A stretch of 64,000 nt of DNA, from the NCBI GenBank assembly GCA_963813455.1, contig CAWEZF010000008.1, positions 1,874 through 65,873 of the forward strand. The letters are read 5' to 3'. Below, piece by piece: positions 4,626-63,911 of this stretch. Source of the DNA: an uncultured delta proteobacterium. Its GTDB lineage: Bacteria; Desulfobacterota; Syntrophia; Syntrophales; Smithellaceae. The notes under the pieces were generated by a model. It was not told where the DNA came from. It was given only the letters and a program-made list of their open reading frames with translations, and did no database searches. The position numbers and the translations under genes are program-made. Within the stretch, counting starts at the first letter, position 1; each line of letters begins with the position of its first letter.

Positions 4626-5891
4626 ATGAATAATGATATTAAAAATATCGGAATCATCGGGTCCGGCGTCGCCGGGCTTACCGTAGCTTATCTGTTGCAG
4701 AGAAAATACAACATCACACTGTTTGAAAAGAATGATTATATCGGAGGGCATACACACACTATTGTTATACCGGAAGGTCCGGATGCCGGGATACCGGTTG
4801 ATACCGGATTTATCGTGATGAACCACAAAAATTATCCTTTTTTTACCAGACTCTTGGAAACGCTCGGCGTGGAGCTGAGGGATAGCGTCATGTCTTTCGG
4901 ATATCATGACGAGGTCACCGGGCTTGAATACTCAAGCCTGCATTTCAATGGCCTGTTTGCCCAGCGCCGTAACCTCTTTAATCCCCGCTTCTATTCAATG
5001 CTTTTTGAGATTATGAGATTTTTCCGCGAAGCTCCTGTGGCGCTTGAGGAAGGAAAGCTCGCGGGGCTCACTCTGGGCGATTATTTCTCCAGAAACAACT
5101 TTTCCGCTTATTTCATTGAGCACCATATCTTGCCGATGGGTTGCGCTATCTGGTCCACGCCGACCAATACGATGCTCGATTTCCCCGCTGAGTCTTTTAT
5201 ACGTTTCTACAAGAACCATGGGCTACTTTCTGTGGGCGGTCAGCCGCAATGGCGCACCGTTGTCGGCGGTAGCCAGTCATACGTAAAAAAGATACTTAAT
5301 GATTTCAAAGGCAAGGTATATAATAATAAACAGATTACTTCGGTAAAGCGTATTGAGGGCGGCGTTACGGTTCTGGCGCAGGATGGCCAGCAATTCAATT
5401 TTGATGAGGTAGTTATTGCCGCGCATGCGGACGAAGCTTTTACCATGCTTGCGGACCCTTCCGCTGATGAGCGAAATTTCTTATCACCATGGCGTTATAA
5501 CAGGAACCACACGATTCTTCACACTGACTCTTCCGCAATGCCTCCAAACCGGCGTGCATGGTCAAGCTGGAATTTTATTCGCGAATCGGAAGGCGATAAT
5601 GCGCTTTCACTTACCTATAACATGAACCTGCTTCAGGGTCTTTCCGCAAAGGAGCAGTATTTTGTAACGCTTAACCGGCGCAAGCCCATTCCACGCAGTA
5701 AAATCATCGCCGAGATGCTCTACACGCATCCTATTTATACGGCTGATTCCATGAGCACTCAAAAAGATCTGCCATCGCTCAATGGTAAACTCAATACATG
5801 GTTTTGCGGCAGTTATTTCGGATACGGATTTCACGAGGACGCAGTCCGCTCAGCGGTGGCTGTTGCGCGGGATTTCGGTATAGAACTATGA
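4626..5891 (+). CDS. FAD/NAD(P)-binding amine-oxidase-like oxidoreductase (usual partner of DUF1365/CFA synthase)
   Basis: 421 aa with N-terminal GIIGSGVAGLTVAYLL dinucleotide fold and a strong GGAGGAGG RBS. Shares an ATGA overlap with the next gene. Confidence 0.8.
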   Translation: MNNDIKNIGIIGSGVAGLTVAYLLQRKYNITLFEKNDYIGGHTHTIVIPEGPDAGIPVDTGFIVMNHKNYPFFTRLLETLGVELRDSVMSFGYHDEVTGLEYSSLHFNGLFAQRRNLFNPRFYSMLFEIMRFFREAPVALEEGKLAGLTLGDYFSRNNFSAYFIEHHILPMGCAIWSTPTNTMLDFPAESFIRFYKNHGLLSVGGQPQWRTVVGGSQSYVKKILNDFKGKVYNNKQITSVKRIEGGVTVLAQDGQQFNFDEVVIAAHADEAFTMLADPSADERNFLSPWRYNRNHTILHTDSSAMPPNRRAWSSWNFIRESEGDNALSLTYNMNLLQGLSAKEQYFVTLNRRKPIPRSKIIAEMLYTHPIYTADSMSTQKDLPSLNGKLNTWFCGSYFGYGFHEDAVRSAVAVARDFGIEL

Positions 5892-7891
5892 ATTCCAGGA
5901 TTTGTCGCGGAACAATCATGCACCGGCGTCACTGGCCTGTAGAGCATCACTTCACATTTCCCTATTATTTTTATGTCTTCGATCTTGATGAACTAGACGA
6001 AATCAATGGCAGCGTAAAAATCTTCAACCACAATAAGTGGAACATCGTTTCGATTCATGACAAAGACTATCTCGCGGGCAGTGGTTCGATCAAGGAAAAA
6101 ATACTCCACTATCTACAGGGAGCCGGATACGCGGATGGAATCTTCCGCATTGAGCTCGTGACAAACGCGCGTTATTTTGGTTACGTGTTCAATCCCGTTT
6201 CATTCTATTATTGCTACCGCCAGGACGGAAGTGTGCATGCGGTTGTGGCAGAAGTTAACAATACCTACGGCGACAAACATCTCTATATCCTCGATAATAA
6301 AAGCGGGAAGAAATTCGTGCCGATTAAGATCACTCACGGCAAGGAATTTCACGTTTCTCCGTTTAACGATTTGAAGGGACATTACGAGTTCAGTTTTGAG
6401 GAACCAAAGGGTGCATTTCGCATCAGCATTACTTTGGTGCGTGATGAGGGAGTTATTTTGGAAGCGGTATTATCCGCCAAAGCTTCCCCCCTGACAAGCG
6501 CGACTCTCACCAAAACCATCCTCAAATACCCGATCACCTCGTTTGTCACGATTCCACGAATATTCATACAGGCTTTAAAGCTCTTTTTCATAAAGAGACT
6601 CAAGTTTAACGACAGGCCGGAGCCACCAAGCGCAATGACGATCAAACATGCAAGGACTACAGCGCCCCGAAAGCCCAATTCTATTCAGAAAACAAGGATG
6701 GTTATTGTCAAAAAAATCCTGTCCGGAGCTGACAAAGGATTACTGGAGATTGAGCTACCCGACCGATCGCGCTATTTTTTCGGAAAAGAGAGCTCCGGGC
6801 CTAAGCTTTCTCTGCGAGTGAAGAATTACCGATTTTTTAATCGCTTAATCTCATCCGGAGAGATCGGATTTGGCGAGTCTTATACAGCGGGAGAGTTTGA
6901 AACCGACGATCTGGTCGGGGTCATTTCTTTTTTCATCCAAAACAAGAAAGCGCTTGGCGATAGAGGGATGCTGGGAAGTATTCTGAATAAATCTGCGGAA
7001 TTCATAAGGCACCAGATCCTCGACAACACCAAAAGCCAAAGCAGGAAAAATATCCGTGCCCACTATGACCTTGGCAATGAATTTTTCCAGTTGTTTCTCG
7101 ACAAGAACATGATGTACTCCTGCGCGATTTTCAACGAACGGCAGGAAAGCATCGAATCTGCCCAAAGTAATAAAATCGATACGATCATCACCAAGGCCGG
7201 CATACGCGGTTCTGATCATGTGCTGGAGATCGGTTCAGGCTGGGGCGGTTTCGCCGTAGAAGCCGTAAAGCGAACCGGCTGTCGTATAACCACGATAACC
7301 ATATCGGAAGCGCAGAGACAATACGCCATTTCCCGCATCAAGGAGGCCGGTCTTTCGGAGAAAATTTCAGTGCAGCTCTGTGACTATCGTGAAGCCAGAG
7401 GTTTATTTGATGTGATTGTTTCGATCGAGATGCTTGAAGCGGTCGGGCATCAACACCTTCCCTCTTTTTTTCAGGCGTGCGAGAGGCTCCTCAAGCCATG
7501 TGGTATCGCGGTGATCCAAACGATTACCGTGCCCGACCAGAATTACGAAATATACCGTACCCATTCCGACTGGATACGCAAACACATATTCCCGGGTGGG
7601 CACCTTTCTTCCATAACGGCCATTGCCAATGCAATGACAACGAGTTCAAATTTTTACATTGAAGAACTACAGAGCATCGGGATGCACTACGCGCTTACCC
7701 TCGCCAAATGGAAGGAGCGATTTGTCGATAATCTCCCGCAAATATCAGCCCAGGGATTTGATGATTCCTTTGTGCGCAAATGGCTTTACTACTTTTCCGC
7801 ATGTGAAGCGGGATTTAGAAACAGAATTATCAATGACGTCATCATTAAGATCTCGCGAACGATGAACATGCGCCTTGAAGAACCATCTTAA
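5888..7891 (+). CDS. DUF1365 domain fused to a cyclopropane-fatty-acyl-phospholipid-synthase-type SAM methyltransferase
   Basis: Single open frame. Start set at ATG 5888 (MNSRICRGTIMHRRHWP, a DUF1365-type N-terminus). The C-terminal half has CFA-synthase features (GFGESYTAGEF, VLEIGSGWGGFA). Confidence 0.8.
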   Translation: MNSRICRGTIMHRRHWPVEHHFTFPYYFYVFDLDELDEINGSVKIFNHNKWNIVSIHDKDYLAGSGSIKEKILHYLQGAGYADGIFRIELVTNARYFGYVFNPVSFYYCYRQDGSVHAVVAEVNNTYGDKHLYILDNKSGKKFVPIKITHGKEFHVSPFNDLKGHYEFSFEEPKGAFRISITLVRDEGVILEAVLSAKASPLTSATLTKTILKYPITSFVTIPRIFIQALKLFFIKRLKFNDRPEPPSAMTIKHARTTAPRKPNSIQKTRMVIVKKILSGADKGLLEIELPDRSRYFFGKESSGPKLSLRVKNYRFFNRLISSGEIGFGESYTAGEFETDDLVGVISFFIQNKKALGDRGMLGSILNKSAEFIRHQILDNTKSQSRKNIRAHYDLGNEFFQLFLDKNMMYSCAIFNERQESIESAQSNKIDTIITKAGIRGSDHVLEIGSGWGGFAVEAVKRTGCRITTITISEAQRQYAISRIKEAGLSEKISVQLCDYREARGLFDVIVSIEMLEAVGHQHLPSFFQACERLLKPCGIAVIQTITVPDQNYEIYRTHSDWIRKHIFPGGHLSSITAIANAMTTSSNFYIEELQSIGMHYALTLAKWKERFVDNLPQISAQGFDDSFVRKWLYYFSACEAGFRNRIINDVIIKISRTMNMRLEEPS

Positions 7892-29414: not shown

Positions 29415-29415
<1 letters not shown>
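29380..29415 (+). terminator. rho-independent terminator after the ppiD-like gene
   Basis: 10-bp stem GGGAATCATC/GATGATTCCC followed by TTAATTTTT. Confidence 0.65.
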
Positions 29416-29490
<75 letters not shown>

Positions 29491-29558
29491 TTGAGAGTGT
29501 TTAAAAAATGTGCTGCCCAATTAACACAGGCATAAAACACTGTCAACTTGATTTTAGC

Positions 29559-29586
29559 TTGACTTTATCCCGACCGCTTATATAAT
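29559..29586 (+). promoter_or_regulatory. near-consensus sigma70 promoter for tRNA-Leu
   Basis: TTGACT, 16-nt spacer, TATAAT. The -10 element ends 10 nt before the mature tRNA 5' end. Confidence 0.55.
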
Positions 29587-29596
29587 CGCACCCCGT

Positions 29597-29684
29597 GCCG
29601 GAGTGGTGAAACTGGTAGACGCAGGGGACTCAAAATCCCCCGATCTTTACGGTCATGTCGGTTCGATTCCGACCTCCGGCACCA
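29597..29684 (+). tRNA. tRNA-Leu (anticodon CAA)
   Basis: 88-nt type II tRNA: acceptor GCCGGAG/CTCCGGC, anticodon loop CTCAAAA, long variable arm, T loop GGTTCGATTCC, encoded CCA. Confidence 0.9.
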
Positions 29685-30650: not shown

Positions 30651-30764
30651 TTGTCCTTGCGAGGGCGTGTAACGACCGAAGCAATCTCATGCTTTTCTAA
30701 AAACAAAGAGATTGCCACCCGGCATTCGCCGGGCACGCTGCTCCTGCGGTAGCTCGTAAAGACA
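30651..30764. repeat. dispersed palindromic intergenic repeat (copy a)
   Basis: TTGTCCTTGCGAGGG...CGAAGCAATCTC / GAGATTGCC...GGCATTCGCCGGGCA...CGTAAAGACA. The arms are inverted copies and share motifs with copies b-e. Confidence 0.5.
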
Positions 30765-30772
30765 TACGCAAT

Positions 30773-32219
30773 TTATGTTGATTTGCAAAGCGCTTCGAGT
30801 TTTTTGGTAAGAATTTCCCTGATTACTTTCGGATTGGCTTTGCCGCCGGATGCCTGCATCGCCTGGCCGATTAAAAACCCCAAAGCTTTTCCCTGGCCGT
30901 TTTTATAATCGGCAACGGCGGACGGCTGATCGCCCAGCACCTTGTCGATCAAAGAATCAATTTCTCCGTGATCCGATACCTGCTTGAATCCTTTGGCGCG
31001 CACAATCGCTTCCGGCGATTCATCGCTTTCAAACAAATGCGCCAGCACTTCGCGCGCGGCGTTGGCGTTGATTTCATCGCGCGCCAGCATTTTGAGCAGG
31101 GCGGCAAAACGCGCGGGTGTTACGGATGTCTGCCCCAGCTCCTGGCGCTTTTCTTTTACCGCGGGGATTAACTGCGTGGTGAGCCAGTGCATGGCCGTGC
31201 GCGCGGCTACTCCTTCTTTAATCAGATTTTCAAAATAAAGAGCTACTTCCGCGTCGGTACTCAGATAGGAAGCTTCTTCCGCGGAAAGCCCGTATTGTTT
31301 GACAAAACGCTCCGCGCGGGCGGCGGGCATTTCCGGCAGGCGCGCGCGCAGGACTTCAATCTCTTTTTTGGACAATTTAATTACCGGCACACAAGGGTCG
31401 GGAACGCACGGGCCTTCAAATTTGGCGCGCATCGGCGTGGTGACTTTCTTTTCCGGATCCCACAGGCGCGTGTGCAGCACGATTTTTTCGCCGGCCTGAA
31501 CCGCCGCGCCCTGGCGGTTGATTTCATACGCGATGGCATCCCCCACGTGACGCACCGAGTTCATGTTTTTTACTTCCACTTTGGTATTCATCTGGCTTGT
31601 GCCTCTGGGGCGGATGGAGATATTGGCGTCAACGCGCATTGTGCCGTTTTCCATGCTGCACTCCGATGAACCGACGTTGCGCACCTGCGCGCGCAGCGCT
31701 TTGAGAAATTCCATCGCGTGATGCGGCGAGCGCAAATCCGGCTCCGATGACAATTTCCACCAACGGCGCTCCCGCGCGGTTGAAATCCACCAGGCTTACC
31801 GGTTTGCGCCCTTCCATTTCATGCACCAGCTTGGCCACGTCTTCTTCCATGTGGATGTGATGAATGCGCAATCTTTTGGCCGCGCCGTCTTCGTCGGTGA
31901 TGTCAATCCAGCCGCCTTTTGACAAAGGCAAATGCGCCTGCGAGAGCTGATAGCCTTTGGGCAAATCAGGATAGTAATAAACTTTCTGGTCAAAGGCGCT
32001 CACGGGCTGAATTTCGGCATTTAGTCCCAGGCATAAAAGCGCGGCTTTTTCCAGCGCCGCCTGGCTAAGCCTGGGCGACGCGCCGGGAAACCACAGGCAG
32101 ACAGGGCAGGTATTAATATTGGGCTCGTCGCCGGGGTTGTTGGGGCAGTCGCAAAACATTTTTGTCGCGCAGTTAAGTTCGATATGAATTTCCAGGCCGA
32201 TAACCGCTTCAAAATCCAT
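30773..32219 (-). pseudogene. gatB: Asp/Glu-tRNA amidotransferase subunit B, one frame break (or sequence error)
   Basis: N-terminal ORF 31629-32219 (IGLEIHIELN, VDFNRAGAPLVEIV). C-terminal ORF 30773-31753 (SEPDLRSPHHAMEF...YqQ/GatB_Yqey tail). Removing one A near 31748 restores EIVSEPDLRS. Confidence 0.85.
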
Positions 32220-32221
32220 GA

Positions 32222-33409
32222 TTATTTTCCTCCCCCGCCAACGAGATATTCTCCCATATCCAAGAGCCGCCCATCGGCCAATCTTGCCGCTGTCAGTTGC
32301 AGGCCTTCCCGTTTTTTATCCGGCAGATAAAGCGCGGGATGGCCGGTGACGTTGGCAAACGCTGTGTAAATAAAGTGCGCGTAGGTTTCGGCAAGTGTCG
32401 TGGGGTTTTCCGCGGCGGCAGTATTGATAGTGGGCAGAATTATAAAATCAGTTTGTTTTGTCAGCTTTGTCATTTGGGAGACCAAGCCGCGCGCGCAGGC
32501 GGCAGGCGTTTTCGTAGGCAGAATAACTTTCAAACTGAAAATACGCACCCTGAATTAAGTAGCTTTTTAAAAGTGTTCCGAAAGCCGCGCCGCGCGAGGA
32601 AAGATACATTTCGTTCCAGTTTTTCGCGCCCGGCTCGCGCTTTCCGTAGCGCACGGAATCGTAGCGCCCCGCGCACGATGAAGCCTCCACCGAGCCCACA
32701 ATTTGATGCACCGCGAGAAATTGGGAAAAATCAGGAAAGGCTAATTCCTTGATGACAAAACCGGATTTTTTTAATTCATTTAATTTCTGTTCAAAACTTT
32801 CGCGCTCTTTGGCCGGCATTTCCTTTAAAATATCTTTGATGACGCCCAGCGTAGTTTTGGCCGGATCAATTTTTGCAGGTTTTAGGTCCGGCGTTTTTTC
32901 ATCGGGAAGAGAAGAGTCGCGCTCATCGGGGCCCGCGATGGTCTGAAGAATATCACGGATATTTTTAATCTCTCCCGATAAAATACCGTATGCTTCCATA
33001 GAAGGAATCAAACCGGCCAGGCCGAAGCGCGAAACCAGCCCGTAGCTTGGTTTAAATCCGCAAACTCCCGCGCGCGCGGCAGCCAGACGCGCCTCACCCG
33101 CCAAATCCAAAACCAGCTCGGCATCCGCCGCGTTTTTTTGCAGCGCGGCATTCCGGCCATGCTGTCTTTGAGGCCGAAGCCGAATTCGCTCATGCGCGCG
33201 TAGCCGGCAAATTCAGCGCCTTCGCCTGCCATTTTATCCACAACAGCCGCGTTTTCCAGCGCGTGGAATCCGGCCAAAGCTTTTGAACCTGCTTCAGTCG
33301 GCCAGCCGGTAACGGAGATATTCGGCTGAAGCGCGATTTTCATTTTCTGCAAAGCGCCTTTGGAGGAAGCGGCTTTGCCGGTATTGCGGTAGAAAAAAAT
33401 TGAATCCAT
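32222..33409 (-). pseudogene. GatA-like amidase-fold subunit lacking the Ser-cisSer-Lys triad; two frame breaks
   Basis: Three overlapping ORFs (33008-33409, 32448-33110, 32222-32548) are collinear with GatA. The joined length is about 395 aa, versus about 485 aa for GatA. Catalytic motifs are replaced (see findings). Confidence 0.7.
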
Positions 33410-33423
33410 TTTACAGCTTCCCC

Positions 33424-35544
33424 CTATTCCAGAATATTGGCGACTTTAAAGTAATTGCCCTTAAGAGCGGGCGCGCTTTTTAGCAGTTGCCCTTTTTCGG
33501 CAAGCTCTGATTTTTTTGCCGTAAGCCCCGGGCGCGCGATACCCGCCGCGGTAACTACCGAACGGATTGGCTCATCATCAATGGAAAGATTATTAACTTC
33601 CGCGGCAAGCTTTTGCGCCTCACGCAAAGCTTCTTCCATAACCGTGCGCTCTTCCTTGGCGATGCCGATGCGCGATACCCACGAGACGCGATCGAGCAGA
33701 TTTTCTTTTTGCGCCTCGCCGGGCAAAACATCTTTGCCGCCCAGATTCAAAAGCCCCAGTTCGGCCAGCTGTTCTTTTTTGACACCCGCGGGCGCGCCGG
33801 TCAAAGGACAGCCGGCGGAGCGGTTTTTGGGGAAGGCGATAACTTCGCGGATGGATTGCGTGCGCAGAATCATCGAAACCGCGCGGTCCATGCCCAGCGC
33901 CAGGCCCCCGTGCGGCGGCGCGCCAAAGTCAAACGCGCGCAGGAAAAATCCGAATTTTTCTCTCATCTCTTCATCCGTCAAACCCAGCGCGGAAAAGATT
34001 TTGCGCTGCACTTCACGGTTGTTGATACGGATACTGCCGCCGCCTAATTCCTCGCCGTTGATTACCAGATCGTAGGCGCGCGAGCGCAGAGAAAGAAGCT
34101 CTTCCACATTTTTCGGATCGAAATCCACGCGCTCCGGCGCGGTAAAGGGATGATGGCTTGATGTCACGCCGCCTTCGTCCGTGGGTTCAAAAAGGGGAAA
34201 GTGCGTAACCCAGACCGGATAAAAATTATCTTCGCCAATCAGCCCCAGGCGATTCGCCAGATGCAGGCGCAACTGCCCCAGCGCCTGAAGTAACAATTGC
34301 GTAAGACGGGTCGGCAACCATGATCAGCACGTCGCCGTCTTGCACTTCAAAACGTTTCTTTAATTCATCGAGTTCCGCCGCGGAAAAAAACTGCACGATG
34401 TTGGATTCCAGCTTGCCGCCTTCGGCTCGCATCCAGGTCATGCCTTTGGCGCCGAAAGAAGGCGCGATTTCCTTGGCGTATTCATTCTGCAAAACGTTTT
34501 TGCTCAAACTCGCGGATTGCTGCTTAATGTTTATTCCCTTGATGCATCCGCCGCGCTGCAGAATCTGTTTAAAGATGGAATAATTGGTGTTGGCGAAAAC
34601 ATCCGTCACATCCACAAACCTGAGCCCAAAGCGCAGATCCGGCCTATCCGAGCCTGTTGAATCCATCGCCTCGGCATAAGTCACGCGCGGGAAAGGACGC
34701 GGCAATTCAATGCCCGCCACGGCAAACATTTTTACGGTAAGTTCTTCAATAAGTTCGTAGAGAAATTCCTCGTCGATGAATGAAGCTTCAATGTCGAGTT
34801 GGGTGAATTCCGGCTGACGGTTGGGGCGCAGATCTTCATCGCGGAAACAGCGCGCCAGCTGAAAATAACGCTCCAGGCCGCCGATCATCAAAAGCTGTTT
34901 GAAAAGCTGGGGCGATTGGGGCAGGGCGTAAAAATTTCCCGGGTGCACGCGGCTGGGCACCAGATAATCACGCGCGCCTTCGGGCGTGCTGGCGGTGAGC
35001 ATGGGAGTTTCCACCTCCACAAAACCGCGCGCGTCCAGAAATTGCCGCACGCATTGAAAAATTTTATGCCGAGCAATAGATTTTCCTGCATGGCCGGACG
35101 GCGGATATCCAGATAGCGGTATTGCAGGCGTAAATCTTCCGAGACATTTTCTACAGAAGCGTCTTCAGCGCCTGCCACCATGGCTTTGTCGGAAATCGGA
35201 AACGGCAGAGCATCTGATTCGCTAAGCACCGAAAGCTCGCGGACAAATACTTCCAGCGCGCCTGTTTCAATATTGGGGTTTTGAGTTCCCTCTATTCTTT
35301 TTTTAACCTCGCCCGTTACGGCAATGCAGTATTCCGTGCGCAGCGTTGTCGCCGTTTTGCAGATATTATCTGAAGAGGCCTCCGGGCTGAAAACAATCTG
35401 CACAATGCCGCTGCGATCGCGCAGGTGAATAAAAAGCAGGCCGCCGTGGTCGCGGTAGGCATCCACCCAGCCGCAAAGCTGCACGGTTTTGCCGGTATGC
35501 TGTAAAGACAAATCGCCGCAAAAAATACGCTCAGAAAAATTCAT
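33424..35544 (-). pseudogene. aspS: aspartyl-tRNA synthetase with C-terminal GatC-like domain; two frame breaks (or sequence errors)
   Basis: Three overlapping ORFs carry class IIb motifs (FYALPQSPQLFKQLLM, FRDEDLRPNRQPEFTQLD, GGLALGMDR). The last ~95 aa resemble GatC. Confidence 0.85.
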
Positions 35545-35741
35545 GAAGAAGCCCTTTCCGGTTGAAAATGAAGGAACAAATTTGTGCCGCGGATAGTATC
35601 AAAACTGTACCGATGTTTCAAGGATTCATAATCGCGGTGTAAAAAGATGAGAAAATTTATAGCGGTTGGAAATTAGGGGGGGGTAATTAATGTTCAGAAA
35701 GAACGAGTTATACCAGATTCGCCTTCCGAACATTTAGGATG

Positions 35742-36082: not shown

Positions 36083-36119
36083 ATCTCCTCTAAATTAATT
36101 ATTAAAAATCGATACTAAA

Positions 36120-36462
36120 ATGAAGAGTCGGACAACAGCTCAAAACGCCAAAGGACAAATCATCTTATACAAAAACAAGCTGGAAGTGCGTTTGGAGGCA
36201 AATACTGTCTGGATTGATGCACATTCAATTGCCAAAATATTTGATGTTGACCGGACAGTAATCGTCAAACACATTGGAAATATTTATAAAACCGGCGAGC
36301 TATCCTCAAGAGCAACCTGTGCAAAAATTGCACAGGTTGCCGCTGTATGGTAAAAGATATCAAGTTGAATATTTCAGTTTAGATGTCATCATTTCTGTTG
36401 GCTATCGAGTAAATTCAATCCGCCATGCGCCGGAGTTTCTGCTCGGCAAAGCAATCTCATAA
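36120..36462 (+). pseudogene. RhuM-family gene remnant (frame-shifted and 3'-truncated)
   Basis: QIILYKNKLEVRLEANTVWIDAHSIAKIF...HIGNIYKTGEL, then in another frame GKRYQVEYFSLDVIISVGYRVNSIR. Family similarity stops where repeat copy b begins. Confidence 0.6.
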
Positions 36463-38919: not shown

Positions 38920-39118
38920 AAATGATTTATCGTGAATTCAATCCCCGGTTGTCATAAATAAAGATTTGGCCACGTTTACCTCTTTATGTTGTTACAATAT
39001 AAAACAAGATTTTCTATATTACAAGAGTTTAGATATATTTTTCTTATAATTTCGTTGACATACAAAACCGCTTTCCCTATACTTTCGCGTATCATCATTC
39101 CAAAACCGGACGAAACAA

Positions 39119-39451
39119 ATGAAAGCTCCTCAGGAAATCCTTGATCTTGTAGCTCGCTTTGACCAAAACATTGATGCCTACCAGTCCGGCAAATACAACG
39201 AGGCACAAATACGCCGGGAATTTATTGATCCTTTCTTTAAGGCGCTGGGCTGGGATATTGAGAACATATCCGGCTACGCCGAAGCTTACAAAGACGTCAT
39301 TCATGAAGACGCGATAAAAATCGGCTCCGCCAATAAAGCCCCTGATTACAGCATCCGCATCGGCGGCACACGCAAATTCTTTATCGAAGCGAATGAAAAA
39401 CCGTCTCCAGAAAAGCTTAGGCAGATCCGTACAGATCAGAGAAACAGCTAA
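39119..39451 (+). pseudogene. N-terminal fragment (~95 aa) of a type IIG restriction-modification / PglX-like enzyme
   Basis: LVARFDQNIDAYQSGKYNEAQIRREFIDPFFKALGWDI...KAPDYSIRIGGTRKFFIEA is the PD-(D/E)xK N-terminus of such enzymes. Similarity is lost after about 39420. Confidence 0.6.
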
Positions 39452-40565
39452 CAACAAACTTAATGCTAATGACTACGATTTCCGTATCATTGATAGCCCA
39501 ACTGAATTGCACAATATTATCCGTGAGAAGAACAGAGAAAAGAATAAAGCTAGATTGGTTGCAGGTTACTGCTGGAAATGGATAAGCAAACGAAACCCCC
39601 AACTCGAGGATATTGTTATTGGCGATTACAAGGCTACATGGAATCTCGACACCGATGGGCAAGCTTGGCTTATTAAGCCTAATTCTGTAAGTGAGGTTGG
39701 TTGCATACATACCTGTCAGGGACTAGAATTAGATTATGTTGGTGTTATAGTTGGTCCTGATTTAATAGTTCGAAATGATAAAATCATTACACAACCGCAA
39801 GAACGTGCTAGCACTGATAGATCAATACACGGATGGAGAGCTCTTTTTCGAGAAAAACCAGGCGATACAATGAAGCGCCTCGATAGGATTATTAAAAACA
39901 CATATCGTACGCTCATGACACGTGGACAAAAAGGTTGTTATGTTTATTTTGTTGATGATGAAACGCGACAATATTTTGAAAAATGTATGGAGAAGCCGAT
40001 CGCTAAATCTTTAAAAGAAGAACATAAGCCCACTGTTGTTTTGCCATTCAGGCGCTTACCACCAGAGGAAGTAAGACCTTTCGGAAATTGCGTTCCTCTG
40101 TACGATCTTAAGGTAGCCGCCGGAACATTTAGAGATGAACAACAGGTTGCGGATGTATATGGCGGATTAAGTGAGCAATCTATTCAAGATAATGAATGGG
40201 TTCAACTTCCCGATGCCTTTAGACACCAGCGGGGCCTTTTTGTCGTGCAAGTTGTTGGTGAATCGATGAATCGCCGAATACCAAACGGTTCATGGTGTCT
40301 CTTTAGGCTAAAACCTACAGGTACCCGGCAAGGCAAGATCGTTCTTGCACAACATAGAGGTATTGCGGATGCTGACAACGGAGGAGAATTCACCGTTAAG
40401 AAATACGAAAGCAATAAAAGGCTTCTTTCAGATGGTACTTGGCGGCATACCTCAATTACTCTTCGACCTGATACTACAGCACTAGGATACGAACCACTTA
40501 CATTTACAGAAGAACAAGTAGATGATGTAACAGTAATTGCGGAATTAGTTGCTGTGCTGGGTTGA
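39393..40565 (+). pseudogene. 5'-truncated DUF2075 (helicase-like) C-terminal half fused to an S24 LexA-type peptidase domain
   Basis: ARLVAGYCWKWISK...VGCIHTCQGLELDYVGVIVGPDL...YRTLMTRGQKGCYVYF (DUF2075 C-terminal half). Then VPLYDLKVAAGTF...VVGESMNRRIPNGS...FTVKKY (S24 Ser/Lys). No P-loop half is present. Confidence 0.6.
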
Positions 40566-43884: not shown

Positions 43885-45289
43885 CTACTGCACCGCCCTG
43901 CCCGGCCTTCTCTTTACCCTTACCGCGGCTCTATCTGCGGCCTTTTGCTTCAATACCGGAACAACAAAAATAGTATAGAGCGCGCACATGCCGAAGAACG
44001 CGGCCATGACAACGGCCACCCAGTAATTGGCAAACATCACGTTGCCGGCGGCGTCTTTGCTTATATCGGTAAAAATGCCAATGAGCAGGCCGGCAAAAAT
44101 TATTATGGTGATGATGGGAATCAGATAACCGCCGGGCACTTTGAAATCCCGCGGGGTATCCGGCATTCTTCTTCTGAGCCTTATGACGCAGGCAGCCATC
44201 ACAACATAGATGAAGCATTCAAGCGCCGCCGCCATGATAATTATGAAAAGATACTGGCCGGAAATAAGGACAAAGAAGCTCACAAGAAGCGCGAAGAACA
44301 TAAGCCCGAGAATCGCAACCCACGGCGTGGCGTGATCCGGATGCAGCCTGCTGAAAACGCTGGGCAGAACATTGTCCCTGGCCATCGCGTAGGCGAAACG
44401 CGATGTGTTGAGAAGCCCGGAATTAAAAGACGTGACCGACGCAAGTATGCTCATGACTATAAAAACGGCAAGCCCGGTTTTCCCGAACAGGTTCTGGCCG
44501 AAAAGGATATGCGGGATGCTCGTACCCGAAAGCCTCTGTTCGGGCGTCAGGCCGATCCACATGGCGACGGTAAAAAGCGCGTATGTCACGGAAAGCAGGC
44601 CGATGGCAATCATCATTCCCTTGCCGATAAGCCTGTAATCGGTTGTTTCCTCGGCCAGCGGCGTCACCCACTCGAAACCCGACATAAAGGAAAACGCCCA
44701 CAGCGGCAGCGGTAATGACATTGGAAAGCGTGAATTGCGGATTTGTGAGTGCCGGAATAATGCTCAGGTCGATTTTGAAGATTGCGTACAGGGAGACGAA
44801 AATCAGAAAGCCGATCATTGTGTAAGTGAGGATGTCCTGAACAAAACCTGTCAGCCTGATGCCGCGGTAATTTATTGCCGCAACCGCCAGAATAAAAAAT
44901 ACCAGCCAGAAAGCGCGATCAAAAGTCGGGCTTACAATATCGAACGCGTGGACAAGTACGCTGGCCAAAAGGTAACTTTCGGCGCCGACCATGGAAATGC
45001 CGAGTAGGACATAAAAACTTCCGATTATAATCGCCGCCTTTTCATTGAACGCTTTCTGGATGAACAGCTTTATGCCGGCGGCTGTCGGATACTGGGAGGT
45101 AAGCTCGGAAAAGCACATGGCCGAAAGCAGGCACAAAAGCCCGGCAATCAGTATTGATATCCATGCCAGTTCGCCGACAACAATCGTCGCCACCTGAAAA
45201 CCGGCAAGGTAGCAGGATGTGGCCAGCGCCATTCCCGCGGATGCCGAAATAACCGTCCGCAGTTTGAGTACTTTTTTAAGTGTGGTCAT
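43885..45289 (-). pseudogene. APC-superfamily amino acid/polyamine transporter, one frame break (or sequence error)
   Basis: ORFs 44423-45289 and 43885-44721 are collinear. The join FLYVGF|EWVTPLAEE lies at a GGGTTT run near 44670. Confidence 0.75.
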
Positions 45290-62732: not shown

Positions 62733-63811
62733 ATGAAAAACATTTTTTCTTCAAAAGCAGGGATAATTATCGTCGGTGGCATTATCGGCATTATCGCCGC
62801 CCTGTTGCAGTATTTCGGTAATCCCGCCAATATGGGTATTTGCGTTGCCTGTTTTGAGCGCGATATTGCCGGCGCGCTGGGATTGCACCGCGCGGGAGTC
62901 GTGCAGTATCTGCGCCCGGAAATTATGGGTCTTGTGCTGGGCGCGTTTGCCGCGGCGCTTTTTGCCGGAGAATATAAACCGCGCGGCGGTTCATCTCCTT
63001 TAATCCGTTTCTTCTTAGGAATGTTTGCCATGATCGGCGCACTGGTATTTTTAGGTTGCCCCTGGCGCGCGCTGTTGAGACTGGCGGGTGGTGATGGAAA
63101 CGCCATTTTGGGACTTCTTGGGATTAGCCACAGGAATTTTCATCGGCATCCAGTTTCTCAAAAGAGGTTTTAGCCTCGGGCGCTCTCACGCGCAGGCGAA
63201 AGCCAGCGGCTGGATAATGCCCGGCTTCATGGTTGGCGTTATTTTTGCTTCTGGTTTTCAAAGTTCAGTTTGCCGAAGGCGGCCCGATTTTCTTCAGTGA
63301 AGAAGGCCCGGGCTCTCAGTACGCCCCGATTTTTGTTAGTCTGATCGCGGGTCTGATTATCGGCACGCTCGCGCAGCGCAGCCGCTTCTGCACGATGGGC
63401 GCGATTCGTGATGTGATGCTGACCAGAGATTTTCATCTGATCAGCGGCGTGGCCTCATTGCTTGTTTTTGCTTTTGTTATGAATTTAATTTTAGGACAAT
63501 TTAATCCCGGTTTTGCCGGACAGCCCGTGGCGCATACCAATCATGTCTGGAACTTTTTGGGCATGACATTGGCAGGCCTTGCCTTCGCTCTGGCTGGTGG
63601 TTGTCCCGGCAGACAGCTATTTCTTTCCGGTGAGGGTGACGCGGACGCGGGTGTGTTTGTTATCGGCATGATTGTCGGCGCGGGAGTCGCTCATAACTTT
63701 GCTTTGGCCAGCTCCCCTCAGGGCGCGAGCGCTTTTGGGCCCATTGCCGTGGTTATCGGCTTGGTGTTTTGCCTGATTATCGGCTTTACCATGCTGCAGA
63801 GGGCAAAATAA
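62733..63811 (+). pseudogene. yedE: YedE-family putative selenium-metabolism membrane protein, two frame breaks (or sequence errors)
   Basis: ORFs 62733-63173, 63088-63300 and 63233-63811 are collinear (GICVACFERDIAG.., GCPWRALLRLAGGD.., RSRFCTMGAIRD.., GGCPGRQLFLSGEGD). Confidence 0.75.
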
Positions 63812-63816
63812 TTTTT

Positions 63817-63911
63817 GACCGGCTGAGTTGGCTGGTGCCGGCCGCGGGCTTCAAACCCGTCGGGCAAACAATGCAATGTTTGCTGTTGGGGTTCGATTCT
63901 GAAGCCGGTCT
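63817..63911 (+). tRNA. tRNA-Sec-like tRNA, anticodon UCA (selC or a selC-mimicking tRNA); weak T arm, no encoded CCA
   Basis: Hand fold: 8-bp acceptor GACCGGCT/AGCCGGTC, 6-bp D stem with 4-nt loop, anticodon loop CTTCAAA, 25-nt variable region (7-bp stem GCAAACA/TGTTTGC), GTTCGAT T loop, and U at the discriminator position. Confidence 0.5.

Follow-up and report, generated by a model that had tools for sequence, protein, structure and literature searches.

A conserved operon for an AspRS-GatC fusion, a GatA-like protein without amidase triad and GatB in Syntrophales: a probable covalently tethered asparagine transamidosome

Among the closest described relatives of the system treated here are the bacterial asparagine transamidosomes, in which an aspartyl-tRNA synthetase (AspRS) of the non-discriminating type, the amidotransferase GatCAB and tRNA-Asn act together, as known from Pseudomonas aeruginosa (4WJ3), Helicobacter pylori and Thermus thermophilus (3KFU). 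The GatA subunit belongs to the amidase family and splits glutamine by means of a Ser-cisSer-Lys triad, in which Ser178 acts as nucleophile; the ammonia thus released passes through a tunnel about 30 Å long to GatB, where Asp-tRNA-Asn is phosphorylated and amidated (PMC2330236). The small subunit GatC is required for the folding of GatA and for the formation of the GatA-GatB complex (PMC2330236). The same components, presumably with the same chemistry, are encoded by a three-gene run consisting of aspS::gatC, a gatA-like gene and gatB, which is located on the minus strand of a 64-kb stretch of DNA from an uncultured delta proteobacterium of the Smithellaceae (contig CAWEZF010000008.1, positions 1,874 to 65,873; this whole stretch of 64,000 nucleotides is called the window in the following). 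We consider it fairly probable that this operon represents a covalently tethered asparagine transamidosome with a dead glutaminase, probably fed by free ammonia. The features on which this assignment is based are the following.

33424..35544, minus strand: aspS::gatC, the product of which is an AspRS of the bacterial type ending in a GatC domain, about 706 codons after bridging of two frameshifts
34888-35544, 34226-35050 and 33424-34317, minus strand: the three open reading frames (ORFs) in which aspS::gatC is written in the window
33427..33702, minus strand: GatC-like domain, LLDRVSWVSRIG...KGNYFKVANILE, recognized by NF009460, the tail profile, Pfam on the tails of relatives, AlphaFold/Foldseek and, below its cutoff, TIGR00135
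33703..33750, minus strand: linker from the C-terminal helix of AspRS (QLAELGLL) to the GatC domain, NLGGKDVLPGEAQKEN, as derived from the alignment of relatives
32222..33409, minus strand: gatA-like gene, coding for a GatA-derived subunit without the amidase triad, 394 codons after bridging, with Pfam Amidase found in all three pieces
30773..32219, minus strand: gatB, 480 codons after bridging, with Pfam GatB_N and GatB_Yqey found in the pieces of the window

The frame of aspS which contains motif 3 continues without stop past the tRNA-synt_2 domain for about 130 residues, up to the stop codon at 33424, and about 105 of these residues lie beyond the end of the aspS models (...AFPKNRSAGCPLTGAPAGVKKEQLAELGLLNLGGKDVLPGEAQKENLLDRVSWVSRIGIAKEER...KGNYFKVANILE, ending with GNYFKVANILE). 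A previous reading of this DNA from the sequence alone had taken the extension for a GatC homologue fused in frame to AspRS, and this assignment is confirmed by two profile comparisons. The tail matches positions 627-723 of the 723 positions of NF009460 with an expect value (E) of 4.3e-28, and the 297-amino-acid ORF containing it matches positions 433-723 of the same model with E=6e-145. Moreover, a profile composed of 23 tails, namely that of the window and 22 from related loci, matches residues 5-95 of the solved, 100-residue GatC chain 2df4_C with E=6e-12, and also the GatC-bearing chains 3h0l_C, 4wj3_C, 3al0_C and 3kfu_G. The Pfam GatC domain (PF02686) is found in 17 of the 23 tails on their own sequence. 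The profile search of the tail against GatC, which had been proposed together with the sequence-only reading as a possible refutation, does not refute it, since the match to NF009460, a family model containing GatC, is significant. The window tail itself gives no match to PF02686 even at E<=10, and its match to TIGR00135 (gatC) covers positions 4-93 of 93 but reaches only 17.9 bits (E=0.0028; cutoff 47.1). An AlphaFold model of the tail contains helices at residues 11-19 and 25-47, followed by an extended C-terminal part, with a mean pLDDT of 70 and values below 50 for residues 1-7. When this model was compared to solved structures with Foldseek, the best seven matches were all GatC chains, albeit at weak scores (E 5e-3 to 0.2, TM about 0.36) as expected of a belt-like subunit which is modelled alone, and the eighth was 6c62_C. 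The linker preceding the domain consists of about 16-20 residues, and its LNLGG....LPG part is conserved among the relatives. A phmmer search with the tail against 1.8 billion representatives retrieved 24 matches, mostly fragments, with no free-standing canonical GatC among them, but nothing can be concluded from this search, since the full-length fusions fall into the clusters of ordinary AspRS. Taken together, the tail is a complete, full-length but divergent GatC homologue.

The synthetase part of the fusion is a bacterial-type class IIb AspRS, which comprises an OB anticodon domain, a class II core and a GAD insertion and passes the aspS equivalog cutoff. As judged from Pfam, the three pieces contain tRNA_anti-codon (PF01336), tRNA-synt_2 (PF00152) together with GAD (PF02938), and again tRNA-synt_2, respectively, the last of these domains covering profile positions 186-308 of 308 with residues 28-166 of the 297-amino-acid ORF at 33424..34317. 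The stitched AspRS::GatC protein reaches 767 bits with NF001750 (aspartate--tRNA ligase; cutoff 443) and 700 bits with TIGR00459 (cutoff 374). The best solved match of the N-terminal domain is the P. aeruginosa Asp/Asn enzyme (4wj3_M), and the His of the RDHGG motif and the Gly of the EG..NP motif are common to the window and to the P. aeruginosa and mycobacterial Asp/Asn enzymes, whereas the discriminating AspRS of Escherichia coli carries Leu and Lys at these positions. The role of this His and this Gly in AspRS discrimination has reportedly been described by Bernard et al. in 2006. The AspRS of the window looks like a non-discriminating enzyme which would charge tRNA-Asn as well as tRNA-Asp; this is suggested by the two residues, and the genomic link to GatB also points to it.

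The aspS::gatC gene does not form one uninterrupted frame in the window, but does so in every relative which is not cut by a contig end. Among the loci retrieved, its relatives comprise 118 distinct in-frame AspRS-GatC C-termini, including that of a complete isolate genome, and a single intact ORF of about 705-720 amino acids ending with ...YFKVA(S/N)ILE is found in 23 related loci. More than 120 protein clusters of 705-707 amino acids carry the fusion, and 75 species-level genomes match one strict tail pattern, which was drawn from an alignment reduced to 8 sequences. One of these 75 is the isolate Syntrophus buswellii DM-2 (NZ_CP175563.1), the chromosome of which is complete and contains all three genes, aspS::gatC, gatA-like and gatB, in intact form. 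The fusion is located directly upstream, and gatB downstream, of the gatA-like gene in 72 of 79 loci containing the latter; six of the other seven end at a contig edge, and the seventh is locus L129 (3486-6114), from a metagenome-assembled genome (MAG) labelled Lentisphaerae, in which the pair of gatA-like gene and gatB follows aroA and not aspS::gatC. Only these three genes are conserved across the window and 10 relatives. The order aspS::gatC, gatA-like and gatB represents a conserved operon in Syntrophales (Smithella, Syntrophus) and related anaerobes. The operon is also present in many MAGs with other labels (loci including L115-L121, L125-L127, L128, L131, L132 and L144). Its identity amounts to 45-60% in those assigned to Thermoleophilia, Gaiellales, Actinomycetota, Nitrospirota and NC10, where it lies on long contigs, and is higher in those assigned to Dehalococcoidia, Verrucomicrobia and Planctomycetota; mis-binning or horizontal transfer may be the cause of this distribution.

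An artificial origin of the fusion, by an indel which removed the stop codon of aspS and merged the gene with a separate gatC, might be suspected from the five frameshifts present in the operon and from a TGA and an ATG occurring in the +1 frame of the junction. However, neither a stop codon nor a gatC start separates the AspRS and GatC parts in any of the 118 distinct relatives, which share the same in-frame junction and the conserved linker, the junction of the window aligns with both of its closest relatives free of indels (ungapped from 34146 or 33877 to about 33155), and a curated family model spans both parts. This explanation has a negligible probability and is already ruled out by the comparative data; the fusion is real, conserved and not an artefact. 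In agreement with the previous reading, no separate gatC ORF is present in the operon between aspS and the gatA-like gene, the ATG of which (at 33409) lies 14 nt past the TAG of aspS::gatC and is preceded by GGGGAAG. The ATG of gatB follows 2 nt past the stop codon of the gatA-like gene, with GGAGG inside the 3' end of the latter. Searches with tblastn across the 64-kb window retrieved no second GatC, GatA, GatB or AspRS, and no tRNA-Asn is present in the window.

The suggestion of the previous reading that this architecture had remained undescribed is not supported, since the same architecture is shown from end to end by NF009460/PRK12820, a curated NCBIfam model which bears the name 'bifunctional aspartyl-tRNA synthetase/aspartyl/glutamyl-tRNA amidotransferase subunit C'. 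The AspRS-GatC fusion is thus already catalogued at the database level and is not new. The stitched protein of the window matches positions 18-723 of the 723 positions of the model, colinearly over AspRS and GatC, with 1313.9 bits. The window copy differs from the members of this family by its two frameshifts and by a score just under the cutoff of 1379 bits, which is also missed by intact relatives (1315.9 bits for S. buswellii, 1315.4 and 1298.5 bits for others). The cutoff is therefore narrower than the clade, and the public name of such proteins is plainly 'aspartate--tRNA ligase', as the relatives score below it. No experimental paper on the NF009460 family or on a natural AspRS-GatC fusion was found in the literature, which is a weak negative, as most subscription journals were outside the coverage.

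The second gene of the operon codes for a protein of about 395 amino acids, compared to about 480 for GatA; the parts missing from it are the segment GGSSGGSAA and some 50 residues at the N-terminus of GatA. Its alignment with GatA from Aquifex and Thermotoga maritima shows IALQPNI in place of IA(V/I)KDNI and LDLAGEAR in place of GSDTGGS(I/V)R, and the copy of the window correspondingly reads IALQPNIS and LDLAGEAR, with GGSSGGSAA gone. The Ser-cisSer-Lys triad (Lys79, Ser154 and Ser178 in Staphylococcus aureus) is kept neither in the window nor in any of 75 relatives: Gln stands in the place of the catalytic Lys in 67 of the latter (Pro, Trp, Ser, Arg or a gap in the rest), none of the 75 has retained the segment of the cis-Ser, and the nucleophilic Ser has given way to Glu in 74 and to Asp in one. 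The replacing Gln and Glu are thus conserved in their own right, and Gln28 and Glu105 of the GatA-like protein are also invariant in 46 further sequences. Nevertheless, the protein is clearly derived from GatA in sequence and fold, and closer to GatA than to other amidases. The family profile matches GatA chains with E 3e-56 to 5e-41 versus about 1e-19 or weaker for other amidases, and Foldseek ranks GatA subunits of GatCAB or GatFAB at positions 1-9 for its AlphaFold model (TMq 0.64-0.68; model pLDDT 62), with a tenth GatA entry at rank 11. An intact orthologue reaches 229.6 bits with TIGR00132 (gatA), compared to a cutoff of 481.1. With the triad lost in every relative examined, the protein is predicted to be dead as a glutaminase, and it is under purifying selection. 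This loss, like the frameshifts in all three genes of the window, had been overlooked in the previous reading. No report of a triad-less GatA was found in the literature either, with the same weakness due to the journals covered. Proteins of this type are named 'amidase family protein' or 'hypothetical' by NCBI.

A rarer type of the fusion helps to order these events. In L022 (a Caldithrix MAG), L023 and L237 (CP070710), AspRS::GatC is followed by gatA and gatB as in the window, but the GatC at the same position is canonical (87 bits with TIGR00135, compared to the cutoff of 47.1), and GatA is of full length with 481 amino acids, an intact triad and 629 bits with TIGR00132. The presence of canonical GatA beside the fusion indicates that fusion and loss of the glutaminase were separate events. 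In L237, a glutamine synthetase gene is located just downstream on the opposite strand.

The existence of these variants with canonical GatA may also be taken to suggest that glutamine or asparagine still serves as the amide donor, either by a canonical GatA from elsewhere replacing the GatA-like protein or by a separate glutaminase feeding ammonia to GatB, and the search for a second gatA covered the 64-kb window. We regard this alternative as rather unlikely, because in 72 of the 79 loci it is the triad-less protein which is encoded next to both the fusion and gatB, where it is maintained by purifying selection, and because a single gatCAB has been counted in Syntrophus aciditrophicus (PMC4206432). 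A fourth conserved gene of the operon supplying a glutaminase was considered as a candidate and rejected, as no such neighbour is present in the window and the 10 relatives.

The third gene codes for GatB. An orthologue of it reaches 571.9 bits with NF004012 (equivalog cutoff 338), and the motifs GLExH, HxEED, PLxEIV, RxDxNxS and ExKNxNS are kept in 79 of 79 sequences, from which GatB looks catalytically competent. These data bear on another explanation, in which GatC, the GatA-like protein and GatB would no longer amidate but persist as a vestigial accessory of AspRS, such as an appendage which binds tRNA or stabilises the enzyme, similar to AtzE-AtzG. Such a function would fit the dead glutaminase and the finding that the Foldseek matches of the tail include 6c62_C, which belongs to a complex described as vestigial, and a vestigial GatCAB has been raised as a possibility for some delta-proteobacteria (PMC4206432). 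The score of GatB above its equivalog cutoff and the preservation of every checked catalytic motif argue against it, as does the reported lack of asnS in S. aciditrophicus, which would make amidation essential (PMC4206432), and we consider it quite improbable.

The context for an amidating complex is given by the genome of S. aciditrophicus SB, for which no asnS, one glnS, one aspS and one gatCAB have been listed, together with a tRNA-Asn carrying U1-A72 (PMC4206432, Table S1). As asnS is missing there, the single AspRS must serve both tRNAs in Syntrophus, and with glnS present the amidotransferase serves Asn only and need not be shared. Sharing of GatCAB with GluRS is part of the reason why the asparagine transamidosomes of mesophilic bacteria are dynamic (PMC3367201). 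A hard-wired complex of AspRS and amidotransferase, as proposed in the sequence-only reading, would be the natural interpretation of the fusion. Each subunit of the AspRS dimer would permanently carry one module of GatA-like protein and GatB through the fused GatC, as GatC lets GatA fold and holds it to GatB, and the assembly should form a tRNA-independent asparagine transamidosome of 2:2:2 composition. AspRS would charge tRNA-Asn with aspartate, and the acceptor end would flip into GatB to be phosphorylated and amidated to Asn-tRNA-Asn, so that the mischarged intermediate would never be released. The amide nitrogen would most likely be derived from free ammonia, because the GatA-like protein cannot hydrolyse glutamine, but this is the least certain step of the proposed mechanism. 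The GatA-like protein itself may be kept for its role in scaffolding, and it perhaps forms the entrance of the ammonia tunnel. In a more far-reaching version, which is proposed only tentatively, the only AspRS of Syntrophales and allied anaerobes would be tethered via GatC to GatB and a glutaminase-dead GatA scaffold, Asn-tRNA-Asn and possibly all asparagine would be made via a glutamine-independent, ammonia-dependent transamidosome, and the invariant Glu and Gln residues, which have replaced the nucleophilic Ser and the catalytic Lys, would represent the entry site of ammonium at the old tunnel mouth.

The copy of the operon in the window deviates from those of its relatives by five small frameshifts within 4.8 kb, two in aspS, two in the gatA-like gene and one in gatB, which are located as follows.

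35060..35085, minus strand: first frameshift in aspS, net -1 or +2, between ...RPAMQENLL and ARHKIFQ...
34276..34294, minus strand: second frameshift in aspS, one extra T (ACTTCAG compared to ACxCAG implied by the relatives), between ...PSYAIVT and QALGQLRL...
about 33150-33155 (+2) and about 32483-32488 (+1), minus strand: frameshifts in the gatA-like gene, indels relative to L081 and L084
about 31745-31747 (+1), minus strand: frameshift in gatB, indel relative to the closest relatives

These frameshifts are specific to the sequence of the window and absent from the relatives where comparable. None of the sites is a long homopolymer, and at the three sites covered by them both of the closest relatives (90% and 85% DNA identity) indicate that the extra bases are those of the window. 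Programmed frameshifting was considered and rejected, as the five sites are unrelated to each other and none is common to the relatives. After bridging, the products correspond to their orthologues in length (about 706, 394 and 480 amino acids) and contain no in-frame stops, and the stitched AspRS::GatC is identical to the intact UBA5764 orthologue in 665 of 709 alignment columns (about 94%), with an operon DNA identity to the window of 85% over the sequenced part. Relative rates were counted as replacements unique to the window versus unique to its sister at sites where three outgroups agree; the resulting values of 6/12 for the gatA-like gene, 6/5 for gatB and 1/1 for the C-terminus of aspS give no sign of relaxed constraint. 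No such interruption affects the core genes of the vicinity, which comprise those of ATP synthase and the cell wall (PBP2) as well as radical-SAM and methyltransferase genes. Sequencing or assembly errors local to this region, rather than gene death, are the likeliest cause of the frameshifts.

The alternative that the operon of the window is a genuine, very recent pseudogene, which became dispensable by another AspRS and another route to Asn-tRNA, is based on the same accumulation of five frameshifts in 4.8 kb next to intact core genes and on the other decayed genes of the window (an amino-acid permease in two parts, and pieces of RhuM, HSDR_N and a SLFN-type helicase). It would also be compatible with the AsnRS and GlnRS which delta-proteobacteria often encode besides GatCAB (PMC4206432). 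However, amino-acid changes specific to the window are not in excess, in-frame stops are absent, the gene lengths are preserved, and the stitched AspRS::GatC has about 94% protein identity to an orthologue at 85% DNA identity of the operon; five indels without accompanying substitutions would not be expected of neutral decay, and no second aspS, gatA or gatB is located within the 64 kb. A pseudogene is therefore regarded as an unlikely explanation.

Several points weigh against the interpretation of the operon as a tethered, ammonia-dependent transamidosome. The tail of the window remains below both the Pfam and the TIGR00135 threshold for GatC, and the AlphaFold models of the tail and of the GatA-like protein both have modest confidence (pLDDT of 70 and 62). 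Among the loci in which sufficient sequence is available upstream, the three genes stand apart in L129 alone. Five indels within 4.8 kb beside intact neighbours do not resemble random error and may reflect a real, very recent inactivation or a local assembly fault. Canonical gatA and gatC, asnS or a second aspS may possibly be encoded elsewhere in these genomes, as the search concerned the 64-kb window. Finally, sequence anatomy and conservation are observed, and the formation of the complex, the charging of tRNA-Asn and the amide donor are inferred.

The surroundings of the operon contain a further feature.

35593..35621, minus strand: TTGAAA-17-TACTAT with TG, similar to a promoter by consensus match only and situated upstream of aspS, some 50 nt from its ATG

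In the promoter and terminator scan, the matches in this region did not exceed the shuffled expectation. A perfect hairpin (CCCGGC-GAAT-GCCGGG; 30718-30733, minus strand) is located in the convergent gap between gatB and purC, but was not called by the terminator scan, because its T-rich run starts more than 10 nt beyond; the spacer segment containing it is missing from the two closest relatives. Genes for tRNA-Ala(GGC) and tRNA-Leu(CAA) are found at 29415-29684 beside purC, and a tRNA-SeC gene at 63817-63911 (plus strand) directly follows the ORF at 63233-63811, indicating that the organism uses selenocysteine. Decayed remnants are located beside the operon at 36099-36462 and 39059-40565 (plus strand). 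They include a fragment of the RhuM family, another of HSDR_N which covers positions 1-37 of 198, and an ORF in which a Peptidase_S24 domain is joined to an SLFN-group-3 helicase domain represented by its C-terminal half only. The amino-acid permease gene at 43885-45289 (minus strand) is split into two overlapping ORFs, which cover positions 6-200 and 198-424 of AA_permease_2 and thus indicate another frameshift in the window. At 4626-7891 (plus strand), in a cyclopropane-lipid cluster, an amine-oxidase-like ORF covers only profile positions 1-268 of 443 and overlaps by about 100 nt with a 697-amino-acid ORF joining DUF1365 and a cyclopropane-fatty-acid synthase domain, which could reflect a frameshift or a natural fusion.

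The new aspect of this operon lies in a widespread natural variant of the transamidosome, which would deviate from all those studied so far in two points, as it would be covalently assembled and would combine a conserved yet dead glutaminase with an intact kinase/amidase subunit. If AsnRS is absent, as reported for S. aciditrophicus, an essential decoding step would proceed without the glutamine hydrolysis which is taken to define GatCAB. This would bear on the tie of amide aminoacyl-tRNA synthesis to the nitrogen status and on the feeding of ammonia tunnels. With the fusion named 'aspartate--tRNA ligase' and the GatA-like protein named as an amidase or hypothetical protein, the respective genomes appear to be devoid of gatA and gatC, and such misnaming leads to wrong pathway reconstructions for syntrophic alkane- and fatty-acid-degrading bacteria.

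In comparison with the known asparagine transamidosomes, the GatC, GatA and GatB homologues of the window match chains of the known transamidosome entries, and the N-terminal domain of AspRS is closest to that of P. aeruginosa. The known complexes are assembled on tRNA as a scaffold, lack covalent links and are dynamic in the case of mesophiles (PMC3367201), whereas GatC is covalently contained in AspRS in the window, and their GatA carries the Ser-cisSer-Lys triad which is missing from the GatA-like protein. Synthetases fused to a consumer of their own aminoacyl-tRNA, which is channelled to it, are likewise represented by LysX (LysRS-MprF), which also occurs among the weak NCBIfam matches, and by the fungal ErdS (AspRS-DUF2156). 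These proteins differ in that their partners and products are unrelated, and in the window only a small assembly subunit is fused and not a catalytic one. A pair derived from GatA and GatC outside of the canonical role, like that of the window, is reportedly represented by AtzE-AtzG (PDB 6C62), in which 6c62_C is the GatC-like AtzG, its partner AtzE is similar to GatA, and both have descended from GatA-GatC. AtzE is reported to keep its amidase activity and to have no GatB, whereas the amidase is predicted to be dead and GatB is retained in the window. A covalent link which keeps GatC and a non-discriminating synthetase together, as in the window, is otherwise known from chain C of 3AL0, a GatC-linker-GluRS fusion engineered by structural biologists for crystallising the glutamine transamidosome of T. 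maritima, which is matched by the 23-tail profile with E=1.2e-5. That fusion is artificial, contains GatC at the N-terminus and GluRS instead of AspRS, and acts together with an active GatA, but it is the closest experimental analogue of the AspRS-GatC fusion described here.

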